From contig NC_057718.1 in the NCBI RefSeq assembly GCF_004010195.1, forward strand, positions 50,787,018-50,851,017: DNA of 64,000 nt. Reading direction: 5' to 3'. The translations under genes were made by a program, and so were the position numbers. The notes under the pieces are model-generated. The model worked only from the letters and a program-made list of their open reading frames with translations. It was not told where the DNA came from and did not search any database. How positions within the stretch are numbered: the first letter of the stretch is position 1; each line of letters starts with the position of its first letter. This document shows, piece after piece, positions 1,046 through 61,234 of the stretch. This DNA comes from Chiloscyllium plagiosum. Taxonomy: Eukaryota.

Positions 1046-1555
1046 ACCGCACCAACCAACCCAACTGCCCCGTGGCTGAACACTTTAACTCCCCTTCCCA
1101 CTCCGCCAAGGACATGCAGGTCCTTGGCCTCATCCATCGCCAGACCATGGCAACACGACGCCTGGAGGAAGAACGGCTTATCGGCTTATCTTCTGCCTAG
1201 GAACCCTCCAACCACAAGGGATAAATGCAGATTTCTCCAGCTTCCTCATTTCCCCTCTCCCCACCTTATCTCAGTCCCAACCCTCGAACTCAGCACCGCC
1301 TTCTTGACCTGCAACCTTCTTCCCGACCTCTCCGCCACCACCCCCTCTTCGGCCTATCACCTTCACCTTAACCTCCTTCCACCTATCGCATTCCCAGTGC
1401 CCCTCCCCCAAGTCCCTCCTCCCTACCTTTTATCTTAACCTGCTTGGCATACCCTCCTCATTCCTGAAGAAGGGCTTATGCCCGAAACATCGATTCTCCT
1501 ACTCCTTGGATGCTGCCTGACCTGCTGCGCTTTTCCAGCAACACATTTTTCAGCA
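1046..1555 (+). mobile_element. Penelope-like element 3' fragment (GIY-YIG C-terminus + pLTR)
   Basis: RTNQPNCPVAEHFNSPSHSAKDMQVLGL..RRLEEERLI, C-rich spacer and conserved tail shared with the 12000-12610 and 34444-35212 copies. Confidence 0.85.
1460..1495 (+). ncRNA. Minimal hammerhead-like motif (stem III CpG-decayed)
   Basis: CTGAAGA(1464-1470)-A-GGGC-ttat-GCCC-GAAACATC; sister copies read GAAACGTC. Confidence 0.55.
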
Positions 1556-2619: not shown

Positions 2620-5125
2620 CTTTTTAGGCCTAATGGAAATAAATCAGTTCTGGAGGTATTTGGAGAAGTCACAAGGTCACTAGGGAGCATCGGAGCCTGT
2701 CGGGATATGTGAGTATAGGGTATAAATTATTTACTTTTATCTCGGGCATTGATCAGTTCCCGGAGGCAGTCGGAGGGGTCACGAGGTCACATATTTGGGT
2801 GGTTGATTTACCCGAAACATTACTCGGGTAATGTCCCCCACCAATCCTCTTCTTCTAATAAAAAAAAGTTCTGTGTGCATTTGGGAAGGTGACAAGTGTT
2901 TTCTTTCGTGTTTCATTTTTTTAGTGGTCTATTTAGAATAGGGAGAATGGAGGTAAGGACAGTTGAATGTTCCTCCTGCAGTATGTAGAAAGTAAGGGTC
3001 ATCTCTAGTGTCCCTGCTGACTTCATTTGTGGGAAGTGTACCCAACTCCTACTCCTTGAGAACCGTGTTAGGGAACTGGAGCTGGAACTGGATGAACTTC
3101 AGATCATTCAGGAGGCAGGGGTGGGGGAGGGATTATTGAGATGAGTTACAGGGAGGTAGTTATGCCACAGCCACATGAAGAAGGTAGATGGGTTACTGTC
3201 AGGGTTGGAAAGGGAACCAGCTGGCAATGCAGAGATCTCCTTTGGTGGTTACCCTCAACAATAAGTATACTGTTTTGGATACTGCTGTGGGGGACAATTT
3301 ACCAGGGGTAAACAATGAGGCACAGGTCTCTGGCGCAGAGTCTGTCCCTGTTGCTCAGAGGGGAAGGGGGAAGAGGAACAGAGCTTTAGTCATTGGGGAC
3401 TCCATTGTTAGGGGACAGATAGGAGGTTTTGAAGGAATGAGAGAGACTCACGATTGGTGTGTTGCCTCCCAGGTGTCAGGGTTTGTTATGTCTCTGATCG
3501 TGTTTTTGGAATCCTTGAGGGGGAGGGGGAGCAGCCCCAAGTCATGATCAGTGACATAGGAAGGAAGAGAGATGGGGATTTAAGGCAAAACTTCAGTGAA
3601 CTAGGATGGAAGCTTAGAGCTAGAACAGACTTGTTATCTCTGGTTTGTTGCCTGTGTCACGTGCTAGTGAAGCGAGGAACAGGGAAAGAATCGAGCTGAA
3701 CACATGGCTGCAGGGATGGTGCAGGAGGGAGGGTTTTGGATTCTTGGATAATTGGAGCTCTTTCTGGGGAAGGTGGGACCTCTACAAACAGCATAGTTTT
3801 CACCTGAACCAATGGAGTACCAATATCCTGGAGGAGGATGGGGTGGGGCGGGTGGGGTGGGGGGGGGGGTAAATTTGCTAATGCCCTTCAGGCAGGGTTT
3901 AAACTAATGCAGCAGGGAGATGAGAACCTGAATTGTGGTTCCAATATACAGGAGGTTGAGGGTAGTGTGGTCAGGAATATGTTTACCGGGTTGCGAGAGG
4001 GCACCATCAATCAGGATGTTGGTTTGAAATATGTGTACTTCAATGCCAAGAGCATTTGGAATAACGTGGGTGAACTTGCAGCATGGGTTGGTACCTGGGA
4101 TTTTGATGTCGTGGCCATTTCAGAGACATGGCTAGGGGATGGACAGGAATGGTTGTTACAGATTCTAGGATTTAGATGTTTCAGCAAGAACAGAGAAGAT
4201 GGTAAAAAGGGGAGGAAGTGTGGCATTGTTAATCAAGGGTAATATTACAGCAACTGAGATAGCATCCACTGAAATAGTTTGGGCTGAGGTTAGAAAAAGG
4301 AAAGGAAAGGTCACACTATTGGGAGTTTTCAATAGGCCTCCGAATTGTTCCATGGATGTAGAGGAAAGGATAGCAAAGATGATGCTTGAGAAGAACGAGA
4401 GTAACAGGGTAGTTGCAATGGGAGTCTTTAACTTCCTCAATATTGACTAGGAATACTATAGTTTAGATGGCTCCGTTTTTGTTCAATGTGTGCAGGAGGG
4501 TTTTCTGACACAGTATGTAAACAGGCCAACAAGGGGCAATGACATATTGGATTTGGTACTGGGGAATGAACCCAGCCAGGTGTTAGATTTGGAGGTGGGT
4601 GAGCATTTTGGCGATAGTGACCACAATTAGGTTATGTTTACAACAGCAATGGGCAGAGATAGCTATATACCACAGGGAAAGAGGTATAACTAGGGCAAAG
4701 ACAATTATGATGCGATTAGGCAAGACTTAGGATGCATAGAATGGAGAAGAAAACTGCAGGGAATGGACACAACTGAAATGTGGAGCTTATTCACAGAACA
4801 GCTACTGCGGGTCCTTGATAAGTATATACCTATTAGACAGGGAGGTAGTTGTCGAGAGAGGGAGCAATGGTTTATAAAGAAGTTGAAGCTCTTGTCAAGA
4901 GAAAGAATAAGGCGTATGTGAGGATGAGGTGTGAAGGTTCAGTTAAGGATTTTGAGAGGTCTAAGTTAGCCAGAAAAGATCTAAAGAGAGGGATAAGAAG
5001 AGCCGGGGAGGGGGTGGGTGAATATGAGAAGTTGTCAGTGGATAGGATTAAGGCCTTCTATAGGTATATCAGGAATAAAGTAATGACTAGAGTAAGATTA
5101 AGGCCAAAGATAGTAGTGGGAAGTT
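2620..5125 (+). mobile_element. Decayed CR1 LINE 5' half: ORF1 (Cys motif, coiled coil, SGNH esterase) and ORF2 AP endonuclease; resumes at ~6068-6127
   Basis: ATG 2947 VECSSC..CGKC..LENRVRELELELDEL; ALVIGDSIVRG; YFNAKSI..DFDVVAISETWL; many stops and frameshifts. Confidence 0.9.
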
Positions 5126-5472
5126 ATAGAGTCATAGAGATATAGGGATATACAGCATGGAAACAGACCCTTCGGTCCAACTCGTACATGCTGACTAGAT
5201 ATCCCAACCCAATCTAGTCCCACCTGTCAGCACCTGGCCCATATCCCTCCAAACCCTTCCTATTCATATGCCTATCCAGGTGTCTTTTAAATGTTGCAAT
5301 TGTACCAGCCTCCACCACTTCCTCTGGCAGCCCATTCCACACATGCACCACCCTCTGTTTGAAAATTTTGCCCCTTAGGCCTCTTTTATATCTTTCCCCT
5401 TTGACCCTAAACCTATGTCCTTGAGTTCTGGACTCCCACCCTAGGGAGAAAAACTTTGTCTATTTATCCTAT
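5126..5472 (-). mobile_element. CR1/HER1 3' end inserted antisense into the previous LINE
   Basis: Closely similar to 32333-32665 and 49436-49770; ctatgact-type tail on the minus strand. Confidence 0.88.
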
Positions 5473-6061
5473 TGTGGGAAATAGAATCCACTCACTTCAA
5501 TAATTTCAGTCCCAGACAAGATCTAAAGCAGCAGTATCGTTTATTGTACACTTGCAAGAGTGGTGCCTATAAGGTAGGTACACCGAGTTTAATGAGTACA
5601 CAACTTATGTACAATTCATTTCTCTTTCCCTCCTCCCATTGCTCCTCCCCTGTTTACATCTCCTACTACTCTAAACCCGACTGTTTTATCTCTTGACTCA
5701 TCTGGCCTTATGCATAAAAAAGTACAAGTTTTGCTTGGCCATTTCACCATATCCCACTGTGGTCCATTGTTATATATCCTCCTCCACTGTCATCTGCTTC
5801 CTTGCTGGCTAAAGCAACATTTCCTTCCACTCTTTATAGATAAGGTGCTGTGACGGGAGGAGGTGTATCTATTTGCAGGCACATTTCATTCTTGTATGCA
5901 CATCTTAGCTAATGCAAAAGCAATTATATATTTCCTTCACATAATTTTAATTCTTGTTAACTCAGCTTTTGGCTGAAACAATTATATACTGGTGTGAGTT
6001 CATTTACCTTACATAAGCAATTATGATTGCAGAAGTAGCACTGCTTTACCTATATCCCACA
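5473..6061 (-). mobile_element. Solo LTR (589 bp) with 4-bp TSD
   Basis: Termini TGTGGGAAATAG / CTATATCCCACA (11/12 inverted match, TG..CA); CTAT duplicated at 5469-5472 and 6062-6065; minus-strand TATA-like motif (~5770) precedes AATAAA (~5540). Confidence 0.8.
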
Positions 6062-7276
6062 CTATCCTTTTGTATGGAATCTGGGGACATAGGGGTAGCG
6101 CTTATAAATATTTTTCATCAGTATATTGCTTTCCTGGTGTCAGGGTTAAAGATGTCTCAAAATGTTTGAAGCATATTGTCAAGGGGAAAGTGAGAAGCCA
6201 GAAGTTGTTTACACATTGGTAGGAATGACATAGTTAGGGAAAGGGTAAAGGCTTTGCAGGGCAAATACAAGGGGTTAGCTGGAAGATTAAAAAAAACATC
6301 AAAAGTAGCTACCTCTGGTTTATTTCCAGTGCCAAGTTCTAATGATGGAAGGAATAAAAGGTTAGGGAAGGTTAATCATAACTGAAGAGATTGTGCAATG
6401 TTCAGGGATTCAGTTTCTTGGATCATTGGGATCTCTTCTGGGTCAGAAATGATCAATATCTTGGAGGGGAGATTTGCTAGTTCTATTTTGGGAGCCTGTA
6501 AGCTTTAGGGGAGGTGGTGTTGCGGGGGTATGCGGGGGGGGGTTCCTAAGGAACGGTGATAAGAGAACAATGAGGATGGTTCTGAATCAGAAAAGACAGA
6601 CAAGAGCAAGTCAGAAAACTGAATAACACTGAACATGAGACTGTATTTATTTCAGTGCAAAGGGTCTTATAGGTAAGGCTGATGAGCTTGGGGCATGCAT
6701 GGGAACATGGGACTGGAACATTGTAACTATTACAGAAACTTGGCTGAGGGATGTTCAGGACTGGTAGCTCAATGTTCCGAGTTTAGATGTTGTGTGAAAG
6801 ATACAAAGAGAGGCAAGCGAGGAGGGGGAGTGACATTTTTGATTAACAAAAACATTATGATTGTAAACAGAGAAGATATCTCTGAGGGATCACTTAGTGA
6901 AAATTTATGGGTTGAAATTAGAAATAAGAAAGGGATGGCCATATTGATGGAATTGTACCATTGGGCCCCCAGCAGTCAGAGCGAATTTGAGAAGCAAATA
7001 TGTAGAGACATCTCAAATATATGTAAGAATAATAGGGTTGAAATAGTAGGGGATTTTAATTTTCCAAACATTGACTGGGACTGCCATAGTGTTAAAGGCT
7101 TGGATGGTGAAGAATTTGTTAAATGTGTTCAAGAAAACTTTCTTTATCAATATGTAAATGTTCCTGCCAGAGAAGGAACAAAACCTCTCCTCCTCTTGGG
7201 ATATCAGGCAGGACAAGTGTCTGAAGTGTTTATCAGGCAACATTTTGGGACTAGTGATCAAAATACTATTAGTCTT

Positions 7277-7511
7277 AAACCAAAAGAGAAAATGCTGGAA
7301 AATCTCAGCAGGTCTGGCAGCATCTGTAAGGAGAGAAAAGAGCTGTCGTTTCGAGTCTAACTGACCCTTTGTCAAAGCTTTGACAAAGGGTCAGTTAGAC
7401 TCGAAACGTCAGCTCTTTTCTCTCCTTATAGATGCTGCCAGACCTGCTGAGATTTTCCAGCATTTTCTCTTTTAGTTTCAGATTCCAGCATTCGCAGTAA
7501 TTTGCTTTTAC
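7277..7511. mobile_element. Fold-back (palindromic) Penelope-derived short element
   Basis: 101-bp arms (7277-7377 / 7378-7478), zero spacer, 3 mismatches; ~15-bp imperfect TSD (7265-7279 / 7512-7526). Confidence 0.85.
7376..7414 (+). ncRNA. Minimal hammerhead-like motif, U3-A8 core variant
   Basis: AGCT-TTGACAA-A-GGGTC-agtta-GACTC-GAAACGTC-AGCT: stem I AGCT/AGCT, stem II GGGTC/GACTC, palindromic ACGT stem III. Confidence 0.6.
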
Positions 7512-8459
7512 ACTATTAATTTTAAAGTAGTTATGGAAAAGGATAAGTCTTTGATAAAAGTTAAAATTCCTAATCGGAGTAAAGGAAATTTTCAGGGTAA
7601 GAAACAAGAACTTCAAAATGTTGATTGGAGTAGATTGGAGTAGACTGTTTGCAGGTAAAGGGATGTCTGACAAGTGGGAGGCTTTCAAAAGTGTGATAAT
7701 GAGAGTTCAGAGTCATTATGTTCCTGTTAGAGTGAAAGGTAAGCATGGTAAGAGTAGGGAACAATGGATAAATAAAGATATTGAGGTTCTAGTCAAGAAT
7801 AAAAAAGAATAAAAAAGATAAAGTCTACTGGGATTAACTGAATCTCTTGAAGAGGGTGAAGAGTGAAGCGGCATTCTTAAGAAGGGAACCAGGAAGGCAA
7901 AGAGAGGATATGAGATACCATTGGCAGATAAGGTTAAAAACAATACAAAAAGATTCTACAAAGACATTAAGAGCAAGACAGCAATTAGAAAGAGAGAGTC
8001 GGACCGCTTAAAGACCAACGAGGTTGTCTTTGTGTTGAACATCAGAAAATAGGAGAAATATTAAATAAATATGTTGCATCAGGTTTTACTGTTGAGAAAG
8101 AAATGGAGGCTGGGGAACTCTGGGAAACAAATACTGGTGGTTTGAAAAAAGTTGACATTACAGAAGAGGAAATGCTGGAGATCTTAGAAAACATAAAGGT
8201 GGATAAATCTCCAGGACCTGATCAAGTGCATCACCAAGTTGTAGGAAGTTAGTGAGGAAATTACAGGGACCCTAGCAAAAATATTTTTATCATCTATAAA
8301 CATAGGTGAAGTAATGGAGGGTGGTTAATGTTCCATTCTTTAAGAAATTCTGTAAGGGGAAGCCTGGAAAAAATAGACTTGTGTGTCTGACATTAGTAGT
8401 GGGGAAGTTGTTGGAGGTGATTCGGAAAGATAGCATTTGGAGAAGCAAGGGATGATTAG

Positions 8460-9043
8460 ATTAATTTTATATTGTCACTTGTAACTAGGTACAGTGAAAA
8501 GTGCATAATGTTGCCACATTCCGGCGCAATCTTGGATTACATAATAAATTACAAAATACATTATATTAATGGTAAAACACTGACTAAATGAATATTAAAT
8601 TGATAGCACTAAAATTGAAACAGCTTCAAAAGTTAATCTTTCCCTCTCTGTCAACTTCACCCACTCTGCTCCTCCAATTGCCACCATCCCAACCTTATTC
8701 TGGGCAATGTGTTCCTTTTCTGCTGTCACAGGTGCCACCACTTCCGTGCCCAATGCCTTTGAGCTGGAGATGGTCACGGTGCGTGGGTCCTTGATGTTGG
8801 ACATTAACCGACAGGTCCTGGCTCATCTTCTGATGCTGTCACCTGAGATGAAGCATGGATAGAGATACACGGGACCCTGACTCCCGCAGGAGGACATCAG
8901 GAGGAGGTCCCAGAGCAACCAAAACAAAAAAAAATTACTGAGCTGGAAAGGCAACGATGGACCATGTGAATGCAGCAGAACTCACTGTGCGAATTATGAG
9001 CAGCCAAGCCCTGAGCTCAGCTCTGCTCTGCCAGCTTGGATTT
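8460..9043 (-). mobile_element. Unclassified non-coding retroposon-like insertion in CR1
   Basis: Splits the CR1 sequence (gatgattag | tttagggatactcagcat); minus-strand tail ttttcactgtacctagttacaagtgacaatataaaa resembles L2/Rex1-type tails. Confidence 0.45.
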
Positions 9044-9404: not shown

Positions 9405-10035
9405 AATGATGTGGAGGAGCTGGTGTTGGACTGGAGTAGACAATGTTAAAAATCACACAACACCAACTTACAATCCAACAGGTTTATTTGAAAGCACTAG
9501 CTTTTGGAGCACCACTCCTTCATCAGGTAGTTGTGAGCAGGACCATAAGACACAGAATTTATAGCAAAGATTACAGTGTCATGCAATTGGAATGATATAT
9601 TGAACAAACCTGAATTATGTCTTTCATCTTTTAGAATGGGTTGCTGGTTTTGGTTCATTAATATGTGAATCCCAGAATTTCTTTTAAGTCACATTCTCAA
9701 GATAACTTTAAGGTTTCACAAAAAAAGGTGACACCTCAGCTCAAAAAATGCATTAAAGGTGTAAGGTTAGAGTCTGTCTGTACCCCAATCTTGAGTCAGA
9801 CTGGTTCGATTTCCAAAGTGAAATTTATAAAATATTACATGGATTGGCTGCCTATTGTTTGTGCATTTTTGAGCAAAATCGATTGCATCTGCAAATTTAA
9901 TCCTGAAAATACAAATTCACCCCATTGACTTATATATGTGTGTGCATGCAGGAGAAAGAGTGTGTGCATGTTAGTGTGTGTGTGTGAGTATGAGTTTACA
10001 TGAAAGAGTGTGTGTTTGCATGTGTGCAAGCTTAG
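9405..10035 (-). mobile_element. Penelope-like element 3' fragment, second family
   Basis: 9405-9530 matches 41372-41497; carries hammerhead-like TAC-CTGATGA-A-GGAGT..GCTCC-AAAAGCTA-GTG (9529-9495). Confidence 0.65.
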
Positions 10036-11075: not shown

Positions 11076-12613
11076 AGAAAGTGAGCACTGCAGATGCTGG
11101 AGAGTCAGAGTCGGAAAGGGTGGCGCTGGAAAAGCAGAGCAGGTGAGGCAGCATCTGAGAAGCAGGAGAGTCAACATTTCAGGCATAAGCTCTTTATCAG
11201 GATGTGGAAGGTCAAGGGGGCTGAGAGATAAATAGGAGGGTGGGGGTGGGGCTGCAGAAAGATAGCTGGGAAGGTGACAGGTGAATGCAAGTGGGGGGCA
11301 ATTGCGATAGGTAAGTGGGGAGAGTGGAGTGGATAGGTGGGAAGGAAGATGGACAGATAGTACAGGTCAAGAGGGTGGTGCTGAGTTGAAGGTCTGGATC
11401 TGGGATGAAGTGAGGGGAGGGGATATATGGAAGCTAGTGAAATTGAAGTTGATGCCATATGATTGGAGGGTCTCAAGGTGGAAGATGAGGCATTCTTCCT
11501 CTAGTCATCGGGTGGCTTTGATTTAGCAGTAGAGGTGGCGCAGAACTGGCATGTTCTTGGGGGAGAGAGACAGGGAATTGAAGTGGTCAGCCAGATGGTG
11601 CATGTCCTCCAGAAATGTTCCCTGAAATGTTCCACAAGTTGGTGTCCTGTCTCCCCAATATAGAGGAGGCCACATTGAGAGCAACGGACACAGGAGATGA
11701 GGGGAGTGGATGTGCAGGAAAATCTCTGCCGGCTGTGAAAAGATCCTTTGGGGCCTTGGATGGAGGTGGCAAGAGAAGGTGCCAGGAGTGGAGGGTGAGT
11801 TGGTGGGGGGGGCGTGGACCTAATGAGGGAGTCGCAGAGGAAATGGTCTTTGCAGAATGCAGATGGGGTGGGGAGGGAAACATAAATCTGGGTCTGATTG
11901 TAGGTGGTGGAAATGACGGAGGATAATGAGCTGTATCTGGAGATTAGTGGGAGTAAGAGATTGCATTTTTACAGTCGAGATTTTCTTGCACATCCACCCA
12001 CCTCATCTACCACCCACCTCATCTACTGTGTCGATTGCTCCCGATGTGGTCTCCTCTACATCGGAGAGACAGAATGCCAACTTGCGCAGGGTTTCAGGTA
12101 ACACCTGTGGGATATGCACCAAATAGCCGCACTGCCCTGTGGCCAACTACTTCAACTCCATCAAGGATATGCACGTCCTGGGCCTCTTCCACCGCTAAAT
12201 CCAAGCCATCTGACAACCGGATGAAGAACGTCTCATCTTCCGCCTTGTGACCCTTCAACTACACGGCATCAACATTGACTTCGCTAGTTTCCAAATCTCC
12301 CGTCCTCCCACCTCATCCCAGGTCCAACCCTCCAATTCAGAATCACCCTCTTGATCTGGCCTATCTGTCCATCTTCCTTCCCATCTATCTGTTCCACTCC
12401 AATCTATCACCATCACACCCCACCTGCATCCACCTATTGCCTTCCCAGATACCTTAACCTCCAGACCCACTCCTACTTCATTATTTATCTCTCAGCACCC
12501 TTCCCTCTCCCACACATTCCTGATGAAGGGTTAAGGCCCAAACCATCGACATTCCTGCTGCTCGGATGCTGCCTGACCTGCTGTGCTTTTCCAGCATCAC
12601 ACTATTCAACTCA
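11076..12613. mobile_element. Composite inverted Penelope insertion (minus arm ~11076-11955, plus arm ~11960-12613)
   Basis: GIY-YIG remnant HLIYCVDCSRCGLLYIGETECQLAQGF; both arms end in pLTR tails; perfect 11-bp direct repeat TCTTTTCCAGG at 11065-11075 and 12614-12624. Confidence 0.85.
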
Positions 12614-23748: not shown

Positions 23749-24209
23749 TCTTAAGATGAAATCACCACTGAAATCCCACTTCTTTTCAGAATATTGAGTG
23801 TTTGCTACATATTTGAAACTTGCTTAAATGTTCAGTCACGCCATAAAATTCTAAATCTCAAAATTATTTTTCGACAAAAGGAGGATTTTAGAATTAAGGT
23901 TCGAACAAAAAGAAAAAAGCACTAAAAAATGAAAATTTTTCAATAATAATACAAATCAGGACTAACAGAATAAAGATAAGCAATGATTATTATAGAACTT
24001 CAACCAGATGCAGAATGGTTTAGCAGATTAATTCATTTTGAAACTTTAAACTTTCAGCTTTAACAAATCAGAAGGATTAACGACTCAATTATGGATGCAG
24101 ACAAGTAACTTTTGTTGCAAGAAACATAAATTTGGTTCTATTGTGATATAATAGTATGTTTAATCTTGTAATTCTGCAATAAACTGAAATCTGCTCATTC
24201 AAGAACATA

Positions 24210-24412
24210 GGAGAAAGTGAGGACTGCAGATGCTGGAGATCAGAGCTGAAAATGTGTTGCTGGAGAAGCGCAGCAGGTCAGGCAGCATCCAAGGAACAGG
24301 AGAATCGACGTTTTGGGCATGAGCCCTTCTTTTCATGCCCGAAACGTCGATTCTCCTGCTCCTTGGATGCTGTCTGACCTGCTGCGCTTTTCCAGCAACA
24401 CATTTTCAGCTC
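24210..24412. mobile_element. Fold-back Penelope-derived short element with 17-bp direct repeat
   Basis: 80-bp arms 24243-24322 / 24333-24412, 10-nt spacer; GCTCATTCAAGAACATA at 24193-24209 and 24409-24425. Confidence 0.9.
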
Positions 24413-25279: not shown

Positions 25280-25460
25280 AAAATGAAAAATGCTGGAAAT
25301 CTGAAAGAAAAGCAGAAAAATCTTGAAATATTCAACAGGTATTTGCGGCAAGAGAAACAAAAATACCTGATGAAAGGTCACATCTTGAAATGTTAACTTT
25401 GTTTCTCTCCCCATGTAAGTTCCTGGACATGTTGAGTTTTTCCAACAGTTCTCATTTTTA
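25280..25460. mobile_element. Old, degenerate fold-back Penelope-derived element
   Basis: Loosely inverted arms around CTGATGA-AAGGTCACATCTT-GAAATGTT (~25367-25394). Confidence 0.5.
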
Positions 25461-32332: not shown

Positions 32333-33257
32333 GTCATAGAGATGTACAGCATGGAAACAGACCCTTCAGTCCAACTAGTCCATGCCGACCAGATATTCCA
32401 ATCTAATCTATTCTCACTTGCCAGCACCCAGCTTATTTTACTCCAAACCCTTCCTATTCATATATCCATCCAGATGCATTTTAAATGTTGCAAGTGTATT
32501 AGCCTCCATCACTTCCTCTGGCAGCCCATTCCATACACGCACCACCCTCTGCGTGAAAATGTTGCCCCTTAGGTCTCTTTTATATCTTTCCCCTCTCACC
32601 CTAAACCTATGCCCTCTAGTTCTGGACTCCCCCACCCCAGGGAAAACACCTTGTCTATTTATCCTATCCATGCCCCTCATGATTTTATAAACCTCTATAA
32701 GATGACCCCTCAGCCTCTGATGCTCCAGGGAAAATAGCCCCAGCCTATTCAGCTTCTCCCTGTAGTTCAAATCCTCCAAACCTGGCAACATCCTTGTAAA
32801 TCTTTTCTGAACCCTTTCAAGTTTCACAACATCCTTCCCATAGGAAGGAGACTAGAATTGCATGCATTATTCCAAAAGTGGCCTAACCAATGACCTGTAC
32901 AACCGCAACATGACTTCCCAACTCCTGTACTCAATACCCTGACTAATAAAGGAAAGCATACCAAACACCTTCTTCACTATCCTATCTACTTGCAAATCTA
33001 CTTTCAAGGAGCCTTGAACCTGCAGTCCAAGGTCTCTTTGTTCAGTAACACTCTCTAGCACCTTACCATTAATTGTATAAGTCCTGCTAAGATTTGCTTT
33101 CCCAAAATGCACCATCTCACATTTAGCTAAATTAAACTCCAACTGCTAGTCCTCAGCCCATTGGTCTATCTGATCAAGATCCCATTGTAATCTGAGGTAA
33201 TCTTCTTTGCTGTCCAATACAACATCAAATTTGGCATCATCTGAAAACTTATCTACT
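32333..33257 (-). mobile_element. CR1/HER1 LINE ORF2 C-terminus and 3' tail
   Basis: ORFs 32867-33142 (FNLAKCEMVHFG..LYRSLVRPLLE) and 32438-32827 (LERVQKRFTRMLPGL..RLRGHLIEVYKI..WNGLP). Confidence 0.93.
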
Positions 33258-34443
33258 AAGTGAATTGTTAGGAGAGTATCAAGGTAGGGGGAGTATAGTT
33301 AAGAGGAAAATCAGGAGGGCAAAAAGAGTACATGAGATAGCTTTGACAAATACGATTAAGGAGAATCCAAAGAATTTTTATAAATACTTTAAGGACAAAC
33401 AGGTAACTAGGGAGGCAATAGGGCCCCTCAAAGATCAGAAAGGCAGCCTATGTGTGGAGCTGCAGCAGATGAGAGAGATACTAAATGAATATTTTGCATC
33501 AGTGCTTACTGTAGAGAAGGACATAGAAGATATAGAATGTAAGAGGAAGTGGCGGATGTCTTGAAACGCATAAAAGTGGATAAATCCTCAGGAACTCATC
33601 AGGTGTACTCTAGAACTCCGTGGAAAGCGAGGGAAGTGATTGCTGGGCCCCTTGCTGAGATATTTGTATCATCGATAGTCACAGGTGAGGTGCTGGAAGA
33701 CTGGAGGTTGGCTAACGTGGTGCCACTGTTTAAGAAAGGTGGTAAGGACAAGCCAGGGAACTATAGGCCAGTGAGCCTGACCTCAGTGATGGGCAAGTTT
33801 TTTGGAGGGAATCCTGAGGGACAGGATTTACACATAGTTGGAAAGGTAAGGACAATTAGGGATAGTCAACATGGCTTTGTGTATGGGAAATCATGTCTCA
33901 CAAACTTAATTGAGTTTTTTGAAGAAGCAACAAAGAGAATTGATGAGGGCAGAGTGGTAGACATGATCTATATGGACTTCAGTAAGGAGTTCAACAAGGT
34001 TCCCCATGGGAGACTGATTAGCAAGGTTAGATCTCATGGAATACAGGGAGAACTAGCCATTTGGATACAGAACTGGCTCAAAGATAGACGACAGATGGTG
34101 GAGGGTTGTTTTTCAGACTGGAGGCCTGTGACCAATGGAGTGCCACAAGGAGCGGTGCAGGGTCCACTACTTTTTGACATTTATACAAATGATTTGGATG
34201 TTAGCATAAGAGGTATAGTTAGTAAGTTTGCAGATGACACCAAAGTTGGAGGTGTAGTGGACAGCGAAGAAGGTTACCTCAGATTGCAACGAGATCTTGA
34301 TCAGATGGGCCAATGGGCTGAGGAGCGGCAGATGGAGTTTAATTCAGATAAATGTGAGGTGCTACATTTTGGGAAAGCAAACCTTAGCAGGACTTACACA
34401 CTTAATGGTAGGGTCCTAGGGAGTATTGCTGAACAAAGAGACC
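33258..34443 (+). mobile_element. CR1/HER1 reverse transcriptase fragment
   Basis: PGNYRPVSLTSV, QHGF..KSCLTNL, YMDFSKEFNKVPH, GVPQGAVQGPLLF, KFADDTK in ORF 33549-34721. Confidence 0.93.
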
Positions 34444-35212
34444 ACTTATCACCTTGTACCATGGAACTGTACTTAGCTGGACCCGTGACTACCTGGTCAG
34501 GTCCATGCTCCCCAACAACCCACCCTCCTTTCCTGGCATCCTCCCCTTACACTGCAGGAATTGCAAAACCTGTGCCCACTCCTCCTCCCTCACCTCCATC
34601 CAAGGCTGCAAAGGAGCCTTCCACATCCAAAGTTTTAGCTGCATATCCACCAATATCATTTATTGTATCCGTTGCTCCTGATGCGGTATCTTCTAGATTG
34701 GGGAGACTGGGTGCCTCCTAGCAGAGCGCTTTAGGGAACATCTCTGGGACACACGCACCAATCAACCACACCGCCCTGTGGCCCAACATTTCAACTCCCC
34801 CTCCCACTCTGCTGAGGACATGCAGGTCCTGGGTGGTCTCCACTGCCACTCTCTCACACCCAACGCCTGGAGGAAGAACGCCTCATCTTCTGCCTCGGAA
34901 CACTTCAACCCCATGGCATCAATGTGGATTTCACCAGTTTCCTCATTTCCCCTTCCTCCACCTCACCCAAGCTCCAACCTCTTCATCCCACCCCCATTCA
35001 CCTATTGTACTCTATTCTACTTTCTCCCCACCCCCACCCTCCTCTCATTTATCTCTCCACTCTGCCGGCATCCTGCCTCTATTCCTGATGAAGGGCTTTT
35101 GCCTGAAACGTCGATTTTCCTGCTCCTCGGATGCTGCCTGAACTGCTGTGCTTTTCCAGCACCACTCTAATTTAGAGTCTGGTTTCCAGAATCTGCAGTC
35201 CTTGTTTTTATT
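34444..35212 (+). mobile_element. Penelope-like element 3' part (GIY-YIG + pLTR)
   Basis: CRNCKTC..FSCISTNIIYCIRCS..IGETG..AERFREHL..AQHFNSPSHSAEDMQVLG. Confidence 0.9.
35081..35116 (+). ncRNA. Minimal type I hammerhead-like motif, best-preserved copy
   Basis: ATTC-CTGATGA(35085-35091)-A-GGGC-tttt-GCCT-GAAACGTC(35105-35112)-GATT; predicted cleavage after 35112. Confidence 0.65.
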
Positions 35213-41371: not shown

Positions 41372-41553
41372 GATGATTTGGAGGTGCCGGTGTTGGACTG
41401 GGGTGTACAAAATTAAAAATCACACAACACCAGGTTATAGTCCAACAGGTTTATTCGGAAGCATGAGCTTTTGGAGCGCTGCTTCTTCATCAGATGGTTG
41501 TCACCTGATGAAGGAGCAGTGCTCCAAAAGCTAGTACTTCCGAATAAACCTGT
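41372..41553. mobile_element. Fold-back Penelope-derived short element, second family
   Basis: ~52-bp inverted arms (41445-41496 / 41502-41553); right arm CAC-CTGATGA-A-GGAGC-agt-GCTCC-AAAAGCTA-GTA. Confidence 0.8.
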
Positions 41554-44299
41554 GGGGCTCATATCAAAAGGGTTAACTACTCTAGGCTTGGGTAAAACCT
41601 ACCTCTGATCTCAATCTTTCTGAAAAATCGGAGTTCTGAAAATAATCCTCTGTTTCACCAGCAAAGTGAACCAAACACCAATTTACATCTTCTGCACCTT
41701 TACCAGCAGTTTAACTGTGCCCGAACTCCTGCAGAGACAACGTCTCTTCCAGAGAACTTAAACAACCTTCACTGGACATTAACCCACTGGACTCTCTAAG
41801 TCATGTCAAAGAATTCTGAAATCAGATATTTTAAAAATAATTTGTCATGTGTAACTCTTCTCTTTTCCTTTATCTTTCCTCTCTGACCTGGATGCATGCA
41901 TGTGAGAATGTGGGTTGTGAACCATTCCCGAATTTTTTGTTTGAGTGCAGCAATAAATCCTACTTTCTTTAATCCGAAAAGAATTTCCTGTTGGTCGTTT
42001 TAAAATTGGACTTCACAAACAAGGTTTGGGGAAACACTTTTTTTAAAACTGCGACAATAAAAAAAAGAAAAACCAACTCCTTTTACAAACAGGTCGATGG
42101 CAAAAATAATCTATGTTCTCCCTCTTGTCCATGCCCGGGAAGTGATTGGAAGTGTACACAAGAGAAAAGACTCAAGGAATGCTTTAATATTAAAATGTTG
42201 ACTGTAGTTCATAGTTTAGAGCCAATATTACTGCATCCATCTACATATATAAAATAGCACACTGGGTTGGCGATTACACTTGGCAGTCAGAAGTGGTAAA
42301 GAATTATTTCAACTGATGCAGAAGTAGATGGTGAAATGGAATTCCTCTGCAACAAGCTGTGATAAACACTTCATAAATATTTCTCAGAAAACAATAAATA
42401 CTTTATTTTTGACAAACAAGCAATTAATGTTAAAGGCACAAAAAATGGTTTATTTTTGCAATTTTGTAAAGCAGTGATACAGAAATAATGCACTGAATGT
42501 GTGTCCCCATAGCGTTGTGACTTTATCATAAAGTTGCGACACTCATATCCTTTCTCTCACTTCAGATTTTTCAATATTTGTGTTATTTTTCAAGGTTGTA
42601 CTCTGGTTTTATTATATGGACAATATACATTATTACAATGCCTTTGTCAGTCAATGTACAACTTAAGGTGACTTAATAAGTCAAGTTTATTGTTAACTGA
42701 TAACTTAAAAATAATTTTTCCTTTAATTCCATTGTTCCTTCTCTCCACATCTGTCCTCCACTCCTGAAGGATTAATTAATGCTTGATAAATGTTACAAAA
42801 AAACTTGTAGCAGTTGATTCACATAGACAACATTCGCATTTGATTCTGACAGTTAGGGTAAGAGTTTGCGTTTTGGATCAGAACTCCAATGCTGGGGTCA
42901 AACTAGGGGCCTGGAATTTCCATTATTGGCTAATTGGTGACAAGATGACAAATTCCCCACCCAATTATGCAGAGTGGGTAGACAGGAGGGTGACTGCAGG
43001 TAAGGGAGGGAGGGGGGCATCTCTATGCAGAGGTGCCCTCTCAGCATTGTCCAAAAATTCAAAAAACAGTAATGATGTCCAGCCACCACGGAGGAACTCT
43101 TCCAAAGGGAGACCAGTGGTTGCGGCTACGGTCATGTGGGTGAGGAAGACCTCGAAAACCTGGAGGTAGCATCAACTGGAAGATTCTGGTCATCCACTGA
43201 TAATTGGCTTGATTTGGTCTTTAACTTACCTTAATTGGTGACTCACCACTTGGAGGTAGTTGGCCGTTCCTTCCTGATCTTGCCTCTGGGTAACTGGCTC
43301 AGGGACAGGAGGGTGCTGGCAAACTTGAATGCCAGTAGGTGGTGTTAATCTCCATTCTCACCCCATATCAAGATGAAAATTTCTACTCTTTGCATCAGAT
43401 AGATATTAGATCATGCAAATGTCATCCCCAGGTGTGACCCATGCTGCATGGATACCTCCACACCTGAACTCACCAACATCAATTATTCAAGAGCAATCAG
43501 AAGTGCAAACATCAGTTGATTTGCCTTCCTCATTAGTTCCCAAGTTACAACATCCTTGATGGTACCCAAATTATCTGACTTAGCACAGCATGAGTATGTT
43601 TCAATTTAATAATATGTAGTGTATTTATTGACTGTGACTTCAGAAAACAAAAGCCCTTTACTTTCTTAATTTATTTTTACTCTTGGCCAAGCTACTAGGC
43701 CTGTGTTGATCATTTGAAGTAAAATCATTCAAGATTCATTTTCCTGTCCCCAAATTCTATGTTGTTAATTCCATTCCAACAGTACGTATAGTACAATGAG
43801 GTATTACAATGCCACAATCATTATTTTGCAAGAAATTACTTCACAGTACATTTTTCTTCACTTATTCCTGAGAGTAGACATTGAATGCTTCATTGTAGCT
43901 CTTTTATTTGTGAGTTGAGGCCAGACAGAGCAGCAGTTTGAATGTTGCAAATTGTCCCAATGTCCCTACTGAAAGAAGATTAAGGACCAACAAACCATGA
44001 CACTATCCTGGCCTCATGGTGTCTCAGAAAAATGTTCTTTTCACGGCAAGGGGTGAGGGCATGATCACCCTTGACTGTCATAACTTACTGTGCAAGAATA
44101 GTACTGCAAAACTTATTATCCATGCTCCCACATGAAGCGAGTTTACTTTGTTGGGGTACGAGAGGATGTCCTCTCAACTGTGAAACTCTAACCAAAACAA
44201 AAGTCAGGACCTTCAAGAAGGTGGATAGAAAATTAAGGATAGTAGTCAAAACTTACTAAAAAATTCATTGCAAGTGTGAGTTTCCAGAAATAACATGAG

Positions 44300-49435: not shown

Positions 49436-51365
49436 TACAGTCATGGAGTCACAGAGATATACAGCATGGAAACACACCCTGTGGTCCCACTCGTCCATGA
49501 TGACCGGATATCCTAACCTAAACTAGTCCCATTTGTCAGCACTTGGACCATATCTCTCCAAACCCTCCCTATTCATATATCCATCCAGATGCCTTTCAAA
49601 TGTTGCAATTGTACCAGCCTCCATCACTTCCTCTGGCAGCTCATTCCATACCTGCATCACCTCTGTGTGAAAATTTTGCCCCTTAGGTCCCTTTTATATC
49701 TTTCCCCTCTCACCCTAAACCTATGCCCTCTAGATCTGAACTTCCCCACTCCATTTGTCTATTTATCCTATCCGTGCCCCTCATAATTTTGTAAACCTCT
49801 ATAAGATCACCCCTCAGCCTCTGACTCTCCAGGGAAAAGAGCTCCAGTCTTTTCAGCCTCTCCCTGTAGCTCAAATCCTTAAACCCTGGCAATAACCTTG
49901 GAAATCTTTTCTGAACCCTTCCAATAGGAAGGAAACCAGAACTGCACGCAATATTCCAAAAGTGACCTAACCAATGTAACATGATCGCCCAACTCCTATA
50001 TTCCAATACTCTGACCAATAAAGGAAAACATACCAAACACATTCTTTACTATCCTATTTACCTGCAACTCTACTTTCAAGGAATATGAATCTGCACTCCA
50101 AGGTCTCTTTGTTCAGCAACAGACCCTAGGACCTTACCATTAAGTGTATAAGTACTGCTACGATTTGCTTTCCCAAAATGCAGCATCTCACATTTATCTA
50201 AATTAAACTCTATTTGCCACTTCTCAGCCCATTGGCCCATCTGGTCCAGATCCTGTTGTAATCTGAGGTAACAATCTTCGCTGTCCACTACACCTCCAAT
50301 TTTGGTGTCATCTGCAAACTTACTAACTGTACCTCTTATGCTCGCATCCAAATCATTTCTGTAAATGACAAAAAGTAGAGGACCCCGCACCGATCCTTGT
50401 GGCACTCTACTGGTCACAGGCCTCCAGTCTGAAAAACAGCCCTCGACCACCACCCTCTGTCTTCTACCTTTGAGCCAGTTCTGTATCCAAATGGCGAGTT
50501 CTCCTGTACTCCACGAGATCTAACCTTGCTAACCAGTCTCCCATGGGGTACTTTGTCGAACACCTTACTGAAGTCCAAATAGAGCACCTCCATCGCTCTG
50601 CCCTCATCAGTCTTCTTTGTTAGTTTTTCAAAAAACTCAGTTAAGTTCATGAGACATAATTTCCCACACACAAAGCCATATTGACTATCCCTAATCAGTC
50701 CTTGCCTTTCTAAATACATGTAAATCCTGTCCCTTAGGATTCCCTCCAACAATATGCCCACCATTGGCGTCAGGCTCACCGGTCTATAGTTCCCTTGGCT
50801 TTTTCTTACCCGCTTTCTTAAATAATGGCAGCACGTTAGTCAACCTCCAATCTTCCAGCACCTCACCTGTGTCTATCGATGATACAAATATCTCAGCAAG
50901 AGGCCCAGCAATCACTTCTCTAGCTTCCCACAGAGATCTACAGTACACCTGACCAGGTCCTGGGGATTTATCCATCTTTATGCGTTTCAAAACATCCTGC
51001 ACCTCCTCCTCTATAATATGGACATTTTTCAAGATGTCACCATCTCTTTCCCTACATTCTATATCTTCCATGTCCTTCTCCACAGTAAACACTGATGCAA
51101 AACACTCATCTTGTAATAGCCCCATCTCCTGCAGCTCCACACATAGGCTGCCTTGCTGGTCTTTGAGGGGCACTATTCACTCCCTAGTTACCCTTTTATC
51201 CTTAATTTACTTATTAAAAACCCTTTGCATTCTCCTTAACTCGATTTTCCAAAGCTATCTCATGCCCTCTTTTTGCCCTCCTGATTTCCCTCTTAAGTTT
51301 CCTCTTTCTACTGTTATCCTCTTCTGAGGATTCTCTTGCTATGTTCTGTCTATACCTAACATATG
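49436..51365 (-). mobile_element. CR1/HER1 LINE ORF2 (RT + tail), frameshifted
   Basis: ORFs 50784-51173, 50414-50779 (YLDFSKVFDKVPH), 50076-50453 (VPQGSVRGPLLF, KFADDTK), 49710-50042. Confidence 0.93.
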
Positions 51366-61054: not shown

Positions 61055-61182
61055 GGAGAAAGTGAGGTCTGCAGATGCTGGAGATCAGAGCTGAAAATGT
61101 GTTGCTGGAAAAGCGCAGCAGGTCAGACAGCATCCAGGGAACAGGAGAATCGACGTTTCGGGCATAAGCCCTTCTTCAGGCT
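61055..61182 (-). mobile_element. Short Penelope-derived element starting at an intact hammerhead core
   Basis: Near-identical to 24210-24330; minus strand C-CTGAAGA(61179-61173)-A-GGGC-ttat-GCCC-GAAACGTC(61159-61152)-GATTC. Confidence 0.85.
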
Positions 61183-61234
61183 TGGCTTGGTAATGTGCAA
61201 TTTCCAAGATGAGACTGCTAAATCTAGGGATGGA

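Follow-up and report, generated by a model that had tools for sequence, protein, structure and literature searches.

The plus-strand motif at 35081-35116 of the window (the whole 64-kb stretch of DNA analysed here) is very probably a minimal type I hammerhead of a Penelope-like element (PLE), of a kind carried by at least four lineages, and this copy a decayed relic in a dead, truncated element. The original prediction had interpreted it as a PLE minimal hammerhead, and this interpretation is supported; the sequence and the cut expected after 35112 both agree with our parse, which places the predicted cut at 35112/35113. The motif class is already known. What is added here is a set of statistics on the 5′ and 3′ ends of the inserted copies, of modest mechanistic value.

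With C3 (numbered +1 throughout) at 35085, the copy belongs to family F1b and reads AUUC / CUGAUGA / A / GGGC-UUUU-GCCU / GAA-ACGU-C / GAUU. Its core and palindrome are intact, and C11.1 has changed to U, a CpG-decay form that leaves a G-U pair. An alternative hairpin fold was also found for this copy. The host, at 34483..35210 on the plus strand, is a 5′-truncated Neptune-type PLE with 85% identity to longer copies bearing reverse transcriptase (RT); it consists of an endonuclease remnant, a 3′ UTR and the hammerhead, and its 3′ end lies at about +126. The remnant (34484..34995, plus strand; tblastn and translation) is a broken GIY-YIG endonuclease with a zinc-finger linker, 74-80% identical to the protein of locus L007 in the tblastn comparison and interrupted by two stops and one frameshift. 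A TATA-like TTTATCT at 35048..35054 (plus strand), a putative promoter element, is retained by F1 subfamilies at -35 to -37. Directly 5′ of the truncated PLE lies a CR1/L2-like LINE reverse transcriptase fragment (33000-34443; L001:404-1579), of which there are inverted copies at 50102-51337.

Hammerhead families and their host elements

The sample comprised the 64-kb window and 1.4 Mb more, picked by position regardless of content, for a total of 1.464 Mb out of a 3.56-Gb genome; 65.5 kb of it was N, and about one third came from around the window. Beyond this positional sample, extra loci were taken from sequence searches. A strict minimal-hammerhead descriptor gave 72 matches in the first 864 kb, compared to 0-4 in each of 10 dinucleotide shuffles, so the repetition of the motif in this genome is not due to chance. 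The 15.2/16.2 pair was self-complementary in 41 of these 72 matches and in 0-2 per shuffle. The hammerhead family was absent among the 11 matches of an Rfam scan at E<=10, and the identification is therefore based on descriptor matches, covariation and the PLE setting; stem III here is loopless, which also sets the motif apart from the canonical (Rfam-type) hammerhead, with its stable stem III and its tertiary contact between loops 1 and 2. Rfam microRNA matches at 7292-7463 turned out to be a head-to-head palindrome. Rough extrapolation from this non-random sample gives ~320,000 F1, ~120,000 F2 and ~40,000 F4 ends spanning the core, and 64 intact motifs in 1.40 Mb extrapolate, with the same roughness, to ~160,000 in the genome.

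In all four families, F1-F4, the motif lies downstream of GIY-YIG, which is the pLTR position. F1 combines a GGGC/GCCC stem II with the palindrome ACGU and stands 3′ of an RT plus GIY-YIG gene with a CX4CXXC linker. F2 (GGAGC/GCUCC, palindrome AGCU) stands 3′ of a different GIY-YIG gene, and F3 (GGGUC/GACUC, palindrome ACGU) has its own gene and a downstream sequence related to that of F1. F4, which was not found in the window, has U inserted after A9 and the palindrome ACGU. Three of nine long F4 copies have endonuclease motifs upstream, with a YVDD RT in L108 across a masked gap, and we take this endonuclease to be Poseidon-type or Poseidon-like. F4 may thereby belong to the Penelope/Poseidon clade, in which the C-terminal GIY-YIG comes with no zinc finger in the linker. 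Nearly all F4 copies are long (14/16), unlike those of F1, and at L040:3812-3853 and L101:4922-4963 they show a 6-7-bp stem II with a possible second stem I segment (GGAGG/CCUCC vs GGAAG/CUUCC).

Translations upstream of the motif gave an RT match (PF00078, E 1.5e-8), a weak GIY-YIG match (E 0.004) and DKG, YIDD and YIG motifs; Pfam overlooked most endonuclease translations. A Neptune-type CX4CXXC-like linker was recognised in translations of F1, F2 and F3, in decayed form in the F2 copies examined. The Neptune clade is described as having an RT with a DKG motif, a CX2-5CxxC linker plus GIY-YIG at the C terminus (PMC8557442), and by these motifs F1, F2 and F3 appear to be Neptune-clade PLEs. 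In L238, moreover, an ORF with a candidate ATG near +168 follows the downstream part of the F3 repeat; because the repeat there runs into the 5′ region of the ORF, this downstream segment can be taken as the 5′ UTR of the element. A block at about +45 to +77 (window 35125-35165 and 7425-7465) is common to F1 and F3 while its neighbours diverge, and it is a candidate protein-binding or RT-start structure. Elsewhere in the sampled region, L084:4739-7645 (minus strand) holds ORF fragments with zinc fingers and RT, which we take to resemble an R2-type non-LTR element.

A MAFFT alignment of 11 motifs set F2 off-register by one column, and pairs were taken from an anchored parse instead. The core positions C3-U4-G5-A6-N7-G8-A9, G12-A13-A14-A15.1 and U16.1-H17 were present in 10/10 representatives, where the 3-8 pair may be U-A and H17 was C, A or U. 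In all families stem II opens with G10.1-C11.1 and is preceded by one unpaired base after A9. Across the ten representatives the 3-8 pair covaried between C-G and U-A, 15.2-16.2 between C-G and G-C, 2.1-1.1 among C-G, U-A and A-U, and 2.2-1.2 among U-A, A-U and C-G. Stem I is 3-4 bp long with compensatory changes, and carries a U-U mismatch in F1a and F1b, the largest subfamilies. U3-A8 was found in 24 of 25 young F3 loci, which had been picked with the window copy, and in 8/8 close F3 matches chosen by downstream sequence alone; older F3 relatives have C3-G8. Alignments of the flanks between the F1/F3, F2 and F4 groups scored like shuffles: of the 14 comparisons, upstream and downstream, in which F2 or F4 took part, 13 had p>0.04 and the other p=0.02. 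Substitution within families was lower in the core than in the flanks, which we considered as a sign of selection on inserted copies and rejected in favour of constraint in the parent lineages plus alignment bias.

These comparisons bear out the earlier proposals that structure is kept though families differ in sequence and that the palindromic stem III covaries, and they go against the refuting condition set with them, a core no more conserved across families than the flanking pLTR: the core is constant across lineages whose flanks fail to align, and its pairs covary. At least three PLE lineages had been proposed; separate lineages 3′ of GIY-YIG genes do exist, but three is an undercount, the number being at least four. 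The extra A after A9, claimed for every copy, holds for the families of the window but not for the fourth family elsewhere in the genome, and among 111 matches the inserted base was A in 98, T in 11 and G in 2. The CpG decay proposed for most copies was confirmed in F1, where substitution was 21% at CpG columns vs 3.5% at non-CpG core columns (121 copies); of these 121 copies, all of which span the motif, 41 still had an intact core, stem II and palindrome. A base inserted after A9, G10.1-C11.1 and a stem III reduced to a palindrome have all been known since 2014 (PMC4209133).

Nine sites in the window had been listed as sharing CUGANGA-A-hairpin-GAAA-NN-UH. All nine belong to the motif families, but only 4/9 match the pattern literally (1464, 25367, 35085 and 61179). 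The list treated its sites as canonical-core motifs and overlooked the U3-A8 core at 7380; G12 is replaced by A at 9526, 12520 and 41505, and G8 by A at 11200. An intact core together with an intact palindrome was found at three of the nine (35085, 61179 and 7380). The F1a motif at 1460..1495 (plus strand), 3′ of a GIY-YIG remnant, retains its core, and CpG decay has broken its palindrome to ACAU. The young-family F3 motif at 7376..7414 (plus strand) is intact, with a 4-bp AGCU/AGCU stem I and UUGACAA at the 7380 site. The head-to-head F3 unit at 7273..7510 hinges at 7377/7378; its minus arm ends at +103 and carries U16.1 -> A, and its plus arm ends at +131. On the minus strand, the F2 motif at 9494..9530 has the AGCU palindrome and the G12 -> A change, and the F1 motif at 11169..11204, 3′ of a GIY-YIG remnant, has lost its palindrome in addition to G8 -> A. 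A decayed F1 motif with G12 -> A lies at 12516..12551 (plus strand), again 3′ of a GIY-YIG remnant. The decayed motif at 25363..25400 (plus strand), which is nearest to the older C3-G8 relatives of F3, has lost G10.1 and the palindrome. Both arms carry G12 -> A in the core of a head-to-head F2 unit at 41439..41559 (C3 at 41505 on the plus and 41493 on the minus strand). The F1a motif at 61148..61183 (minus strand), whose core, stem II and palindrome are intact, belongs to a solo stub that starts at -1 and hence lacks the 5′ strand of stem I. One head-to-head F1a unit absent from the earlier list, at 24209..24409, has a 17-bp target-site duplication on both sides, a minus arm of +4..+126 and a plus arm of +13..+89.

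Ends of the inserted copies

For the analysis of 5′ ends, copies were chosen by sequence 3′ of the cut site and then extended 5′, leaving out those with N at the boundary, a 3′ end below +70 or a 5′ end at or beyond +50. The resulting set held 186 F1 arms, corresponding to 152 events (58 solo, 46 head-to-head and 48 long), and 76 F2 arms, corresponding to 62 events. Nearly half of the F1 events (73/152) started in -8..+5, a density of 5.6 per nt, compared to 25 in -110..-9 (~0.25 per nt), and 28 of the 152 ran past -110. The commonest F1 start was -4, the first base of stem I. Starts at the cut site (+28..+33) accounted for 3/152 F1 events or 0.5 per nt, an insignificant excess over the flanking positions (p=0.46). 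F2 gave 20/62 events in -12..+5 and 4/62 at the cut site, where the excess was again insignificant (p=0.058). Of 79 inverted F1 arms, 4 began at +28..+33, roughly as often as at neighbouring positions, in a comparison of low power. As neither family had a significant excess at the cut site among these 214 events, the 5′ ends in this genome show no direct sign of cleavage. Short copies mostly begin just 5′ of the motif and not at the cut site, so the copied RNA was likely uncut; this suggests that the ribozyme heads the transcript and is usually uncut when copied.

Among the young F3 loci, 18 of 25 stopped at -1..-6 and 7 ran upstream, in a search whose query began at -2 and to which further-downstream ends were largely invisible. 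A peak at +38 in older F3 relatives reflected divergence from the reference, and these copies were excluded from the 5′-end analysis. A break at -4 also appeared in eight contigs from run X16, which differ in their flanks and come from contig sets that may contain DNA, and in 14 raw RNA reads (X21) with a largely common flank. No pile-up of read starts or ends was found in 143 RNA reads from one poly(A) single-cell run, a library unsuited to this use, whose sister run contributed none.

TTTATCT, a weak TATA match, occupied -35 to -37 in 21 of 28 reference F1 copies. A TATA or TATA-like box was found at -38 or -40 in F2 and at -46 to -50 in F4; of the three F3 references, two have it at -36 and -38 and one has a deletion. 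The box lies ~31 nt before the boundary in each family and the boundary shifts along with it, F4 being represented by two short copies only.

The 3′ ends of non-inverted F1 copies clustered at two sites, ~+90 (39 of 98) and ~+126 (42 of 98). We scored 49 head-to-head pairs in the sample. Where both arms ended at these sites, 36 of 38 units had one arm per site: different sites were used in 24/25 classifiable F1 pairs (34 scored, p 8e-7) and in 12/13 classifiable F2 pairs (15 scored, p 0.002). Target-site duplications of at least 8 bp, typically 13-17 bp, flanked 21 of 33 F1 pairs vs 2.5% of controls. The two arms agreed in subfamily type, with 8.8% mismatch at diagnostic columns vs 46% in random pairs, a concordance that fits one RNA copied twice or two RNAs from one source equally. 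These head-to-head units are single insertion events that used both RT start sites.

The young F3 unit opens with AGCT (window 7376-7379; L141-L165), itself a palindrome, and several inverted F3 units hinge exactly within it, as if two cDNA ends had annealed. Tandem copies were absent among the scored F1, F2 and F4 copies and numbered one in F3, with partial short tandems in L245 and L025. These short tandems repeat the opening 10-35 nt of an F1 unit (L245:5424-5674, L025:2271-2407 and sample C9blk 309787), as might be expected if RT had jumped templates repeatedly at the RNA 5′ end via near-identical stem I strands. Two complete hammerhead-bearing repeats around one ORF were not recognised among 20 long loci, and by-eye inspection of 81 long copies turned up no chimera that would mark a ligation seam.

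Copying mechanism and possible roles of the fold

According to the mechanism we propose, reverse transcription would begin at either of two sites, ~90 and ~126 nt downstream. RT on uncut linear RNA would run off the 5′ end to leave a 90-130-nt stub, and priming by both target strands, one per site, would yield a head-to-head unit. In active parents, two motif copies likely pair via the palindromic stem III and cut the element RNA. Active ancestral motifs, we believe, are likely to have cut slowly in dimeric form, probably aided by the protein of the element. Such help is likely because nearest-neighbour calculations on naked RNA disfavour the active dimer: it was never the minimum-energy fold, and in 10/10 representatives a pair of monomer folds was more stable. 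Dimer constructs of PLE hammerheads are described as cleaving weakly (PMC4209133), and the anole PLE hammerhead as protein-assisted, in a system where RT starts at two sites and copies mainly uncut RNA (PMC11167929).

As the purpose of cutting we favour the release, by double cleavage, of a unit-length RNA for circularisation, which would let RT pass from the 5′ end into the 3′ UTR and ORF, a step to which we give slightly less than an even chance. Long copies alone cannot single out circularisation, because tandem read-through or template jumping gives the same copies. We count two published results against an explanation by cleavage and circularisation: mutating the hammerhead did not make insertion in vitro less efficient (PMC11167929), and Naiad PLEs, which have no canonical hammerheads, thrive all the same (PMC8557442). 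The full proposal, in which the hammerhead would make up the opening 35-45 nt of an RNA transcribed from a TATA box, both sites would prime, and full-length transposition would need either dimer cleavage and circularisation or pairing of two RNAs by the palindrome, is a tentative one, less likely true than not.

A rather doubtful alternative, still to be taken seriously, is that the fold is an RNA pairing or protein-binding element joining two RNA 5′ ends in a two-RT complex, with cleavage slow or secondary and long copies arising from read-through or template jumping. The mostly uncut templates and the use of both start sites within one head-to-head event fit this reading, as does the anole protein, a predicted dimer that extends both strands and for which cleavage is dispensable in vitro; nicking and extension of both strands are described in that system, with reads ending at the cut site absent from the data reported (PMC11167929). 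However, a plain pairing signal would need neither invariant catalytic positions nor the joint change of C3-G8 to U3-A8, and the agreement of the arms in subfamily type fits one RNA copied twice equally well.

It is probable that the transcript starts at or just before stem I, ~31 nt past the TATA or TATA-like box, and that the motif takes up its first 35-45 nt. We think it unlikely that the pile-up of 5′ ends instead reflects endonuclease cutting, splicing or RT stalling. At -4 F1 has ATT, the motif at which the anole enzyme prefers to cut (PMC11167929), yet F3 ends at AGCT, without ATT. A polypyrimidine-AG stands just 5′ of the F3 core, but F3 stubs retain the AG and their upstream sequences are unrelated; as a constant exon upstream is lacking, we rejected the idea that the F3 boundary is a splice site. 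Structure would stall RT on its 3′ side, not once it had been passed, and the boundary shifts with the TATA position between families. A cap-derived G, the absence of which would favour a source other than transcription start, was not seen at -5 in any of 16 solo stubs; G occurred in 7/15 inverted copies, several of them attributable to the partner arm. Within the F3 motif region of the window (7390-7481), stem II contains a GT that resembles a splice donor, and two polypyrimidine-CAG stretches further downstream resemble acceptors; they delimit a candidate intron of ~92 nt, the loss of which would remove most of the motif; the donor is absent from F1 and the joint from the RNA reads.

If, as we prefer, the motif sits at the 5′ end of the transcript, cutting there would decap the RNA, and the ribozyme might then act as a brake or processing switch, abundant RNA forming dimers that shed a capped ~33-nt leader and so silence or destabilise the RNA. 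Dependence on dimers would make such a device sensitive to concentration, and cut RNAs are scarce as insertions (3/152), but selection would be less able to keep a purely self-limiting device in four lineages, and we regard this as improbable. Co-option of the 35085 copy by the host as a regulatory ribozyme is extremely improbable despite its intact core and palindrome, as it is one among an extrapolated 160,000 intact motifs, carries C11.1 -> U and an alternative hairpin fold, and lies in a dead element.

Relation to known Penelope-like elements

Minimal hammerheads are described in PLEs of fish, coelacanth, frog and reptile, together with a circle model and a U3-A8 variant in Schistosoma (PMC4209133). 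Like those of metazoan PLEs in that set (fish Xena, Poseidon and Neptune), the motifs here are type I with a palindromic tetramer as stem III, have an extra base between 9 and 10.1 followed by G10.1-C11.1, fall into several families per genome, and are mostly single, dispersed copies. They differ from the set described there in a stem II of 4-7 bp, in the occurrence of U3-A8 in a vertebrate-type genome, and in a host that is probably a cartilaginous fish. By extrapolation this genome holds several hundred thousand copies, compared to ~4,000-9,000 obtained by a different search in coelacanth and frog (PMC4209133).

The anole Poseidon element PAc likewise has its hammerhead at the pLTR-ORF junction, an uncut RNA template, and two RT start sites ~90-130 nt downstream that bound a 30-40-nt tail (PMC11167929). 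The PAc start codon coincides with the start of stem II, whereas the F3 candidate ATG lies ~168 nt 3′ of U3; PAc start sites were used in vitro without strand bias, whereas here each arm of a head-to-head event takes one site (PMC11167929). PLE insertions are described as a pLTR with an inverted 5′-truncated partner and often a tail at one end only (PMC8557442). These structures recur here and were counted relative to the ribozyme; beyond that description, the hinges concentrate where stem I begins, and the arms pair both end sites. As in Penelope of Drosophila virilis, the apparent start site lies in the pLTR slightly 5′ of the hammerhead (PMC2377424). That element has a TATA-less internal promoter and an intron 46 bp past the start (PMC2377424), with the intron end at helix I (PMC4209133), whereas here there is a TATA or TATA-like box and an intron is not evident. 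Non-LTR retrozymes also carry PLE-derived type I hammerheads and are described, in a preprint that sampled one chondrichthyan, as tandem arrays with a hammerhead per unit (bioRxiv 10.64898/2026.07.22.740005). The copies here are dispersed as solo, head-to-head or ORF-linked insertions, and a tandem array with complete hammerheads in at least two consecutive units was absent among the scored F1, F2 and F4 copies. Our literature search, which left most subscription papers outside its reach, found no work on shark PLE hammerheads or shark Neptune elements, and within the same limited literature neither U3-A8 beyond PMC4209133 nor the position of TATA box or start site at PLE hammerheads was found.

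The role of PLE hammerheads is still treated as open (PMC8557442, PMC11167929), and this genome offers, by extrapolation, several hundred thousand countable insertion records that bear on it. Their ends, which point to mostly uncut copied RNAs and to two RT start sites used together, leave fewer possible roles for the ribozyme. If our proposal is true, the dependence of full-length transposition on dimer cleavage or pairing would give the PLE hammerhead a concrete job.
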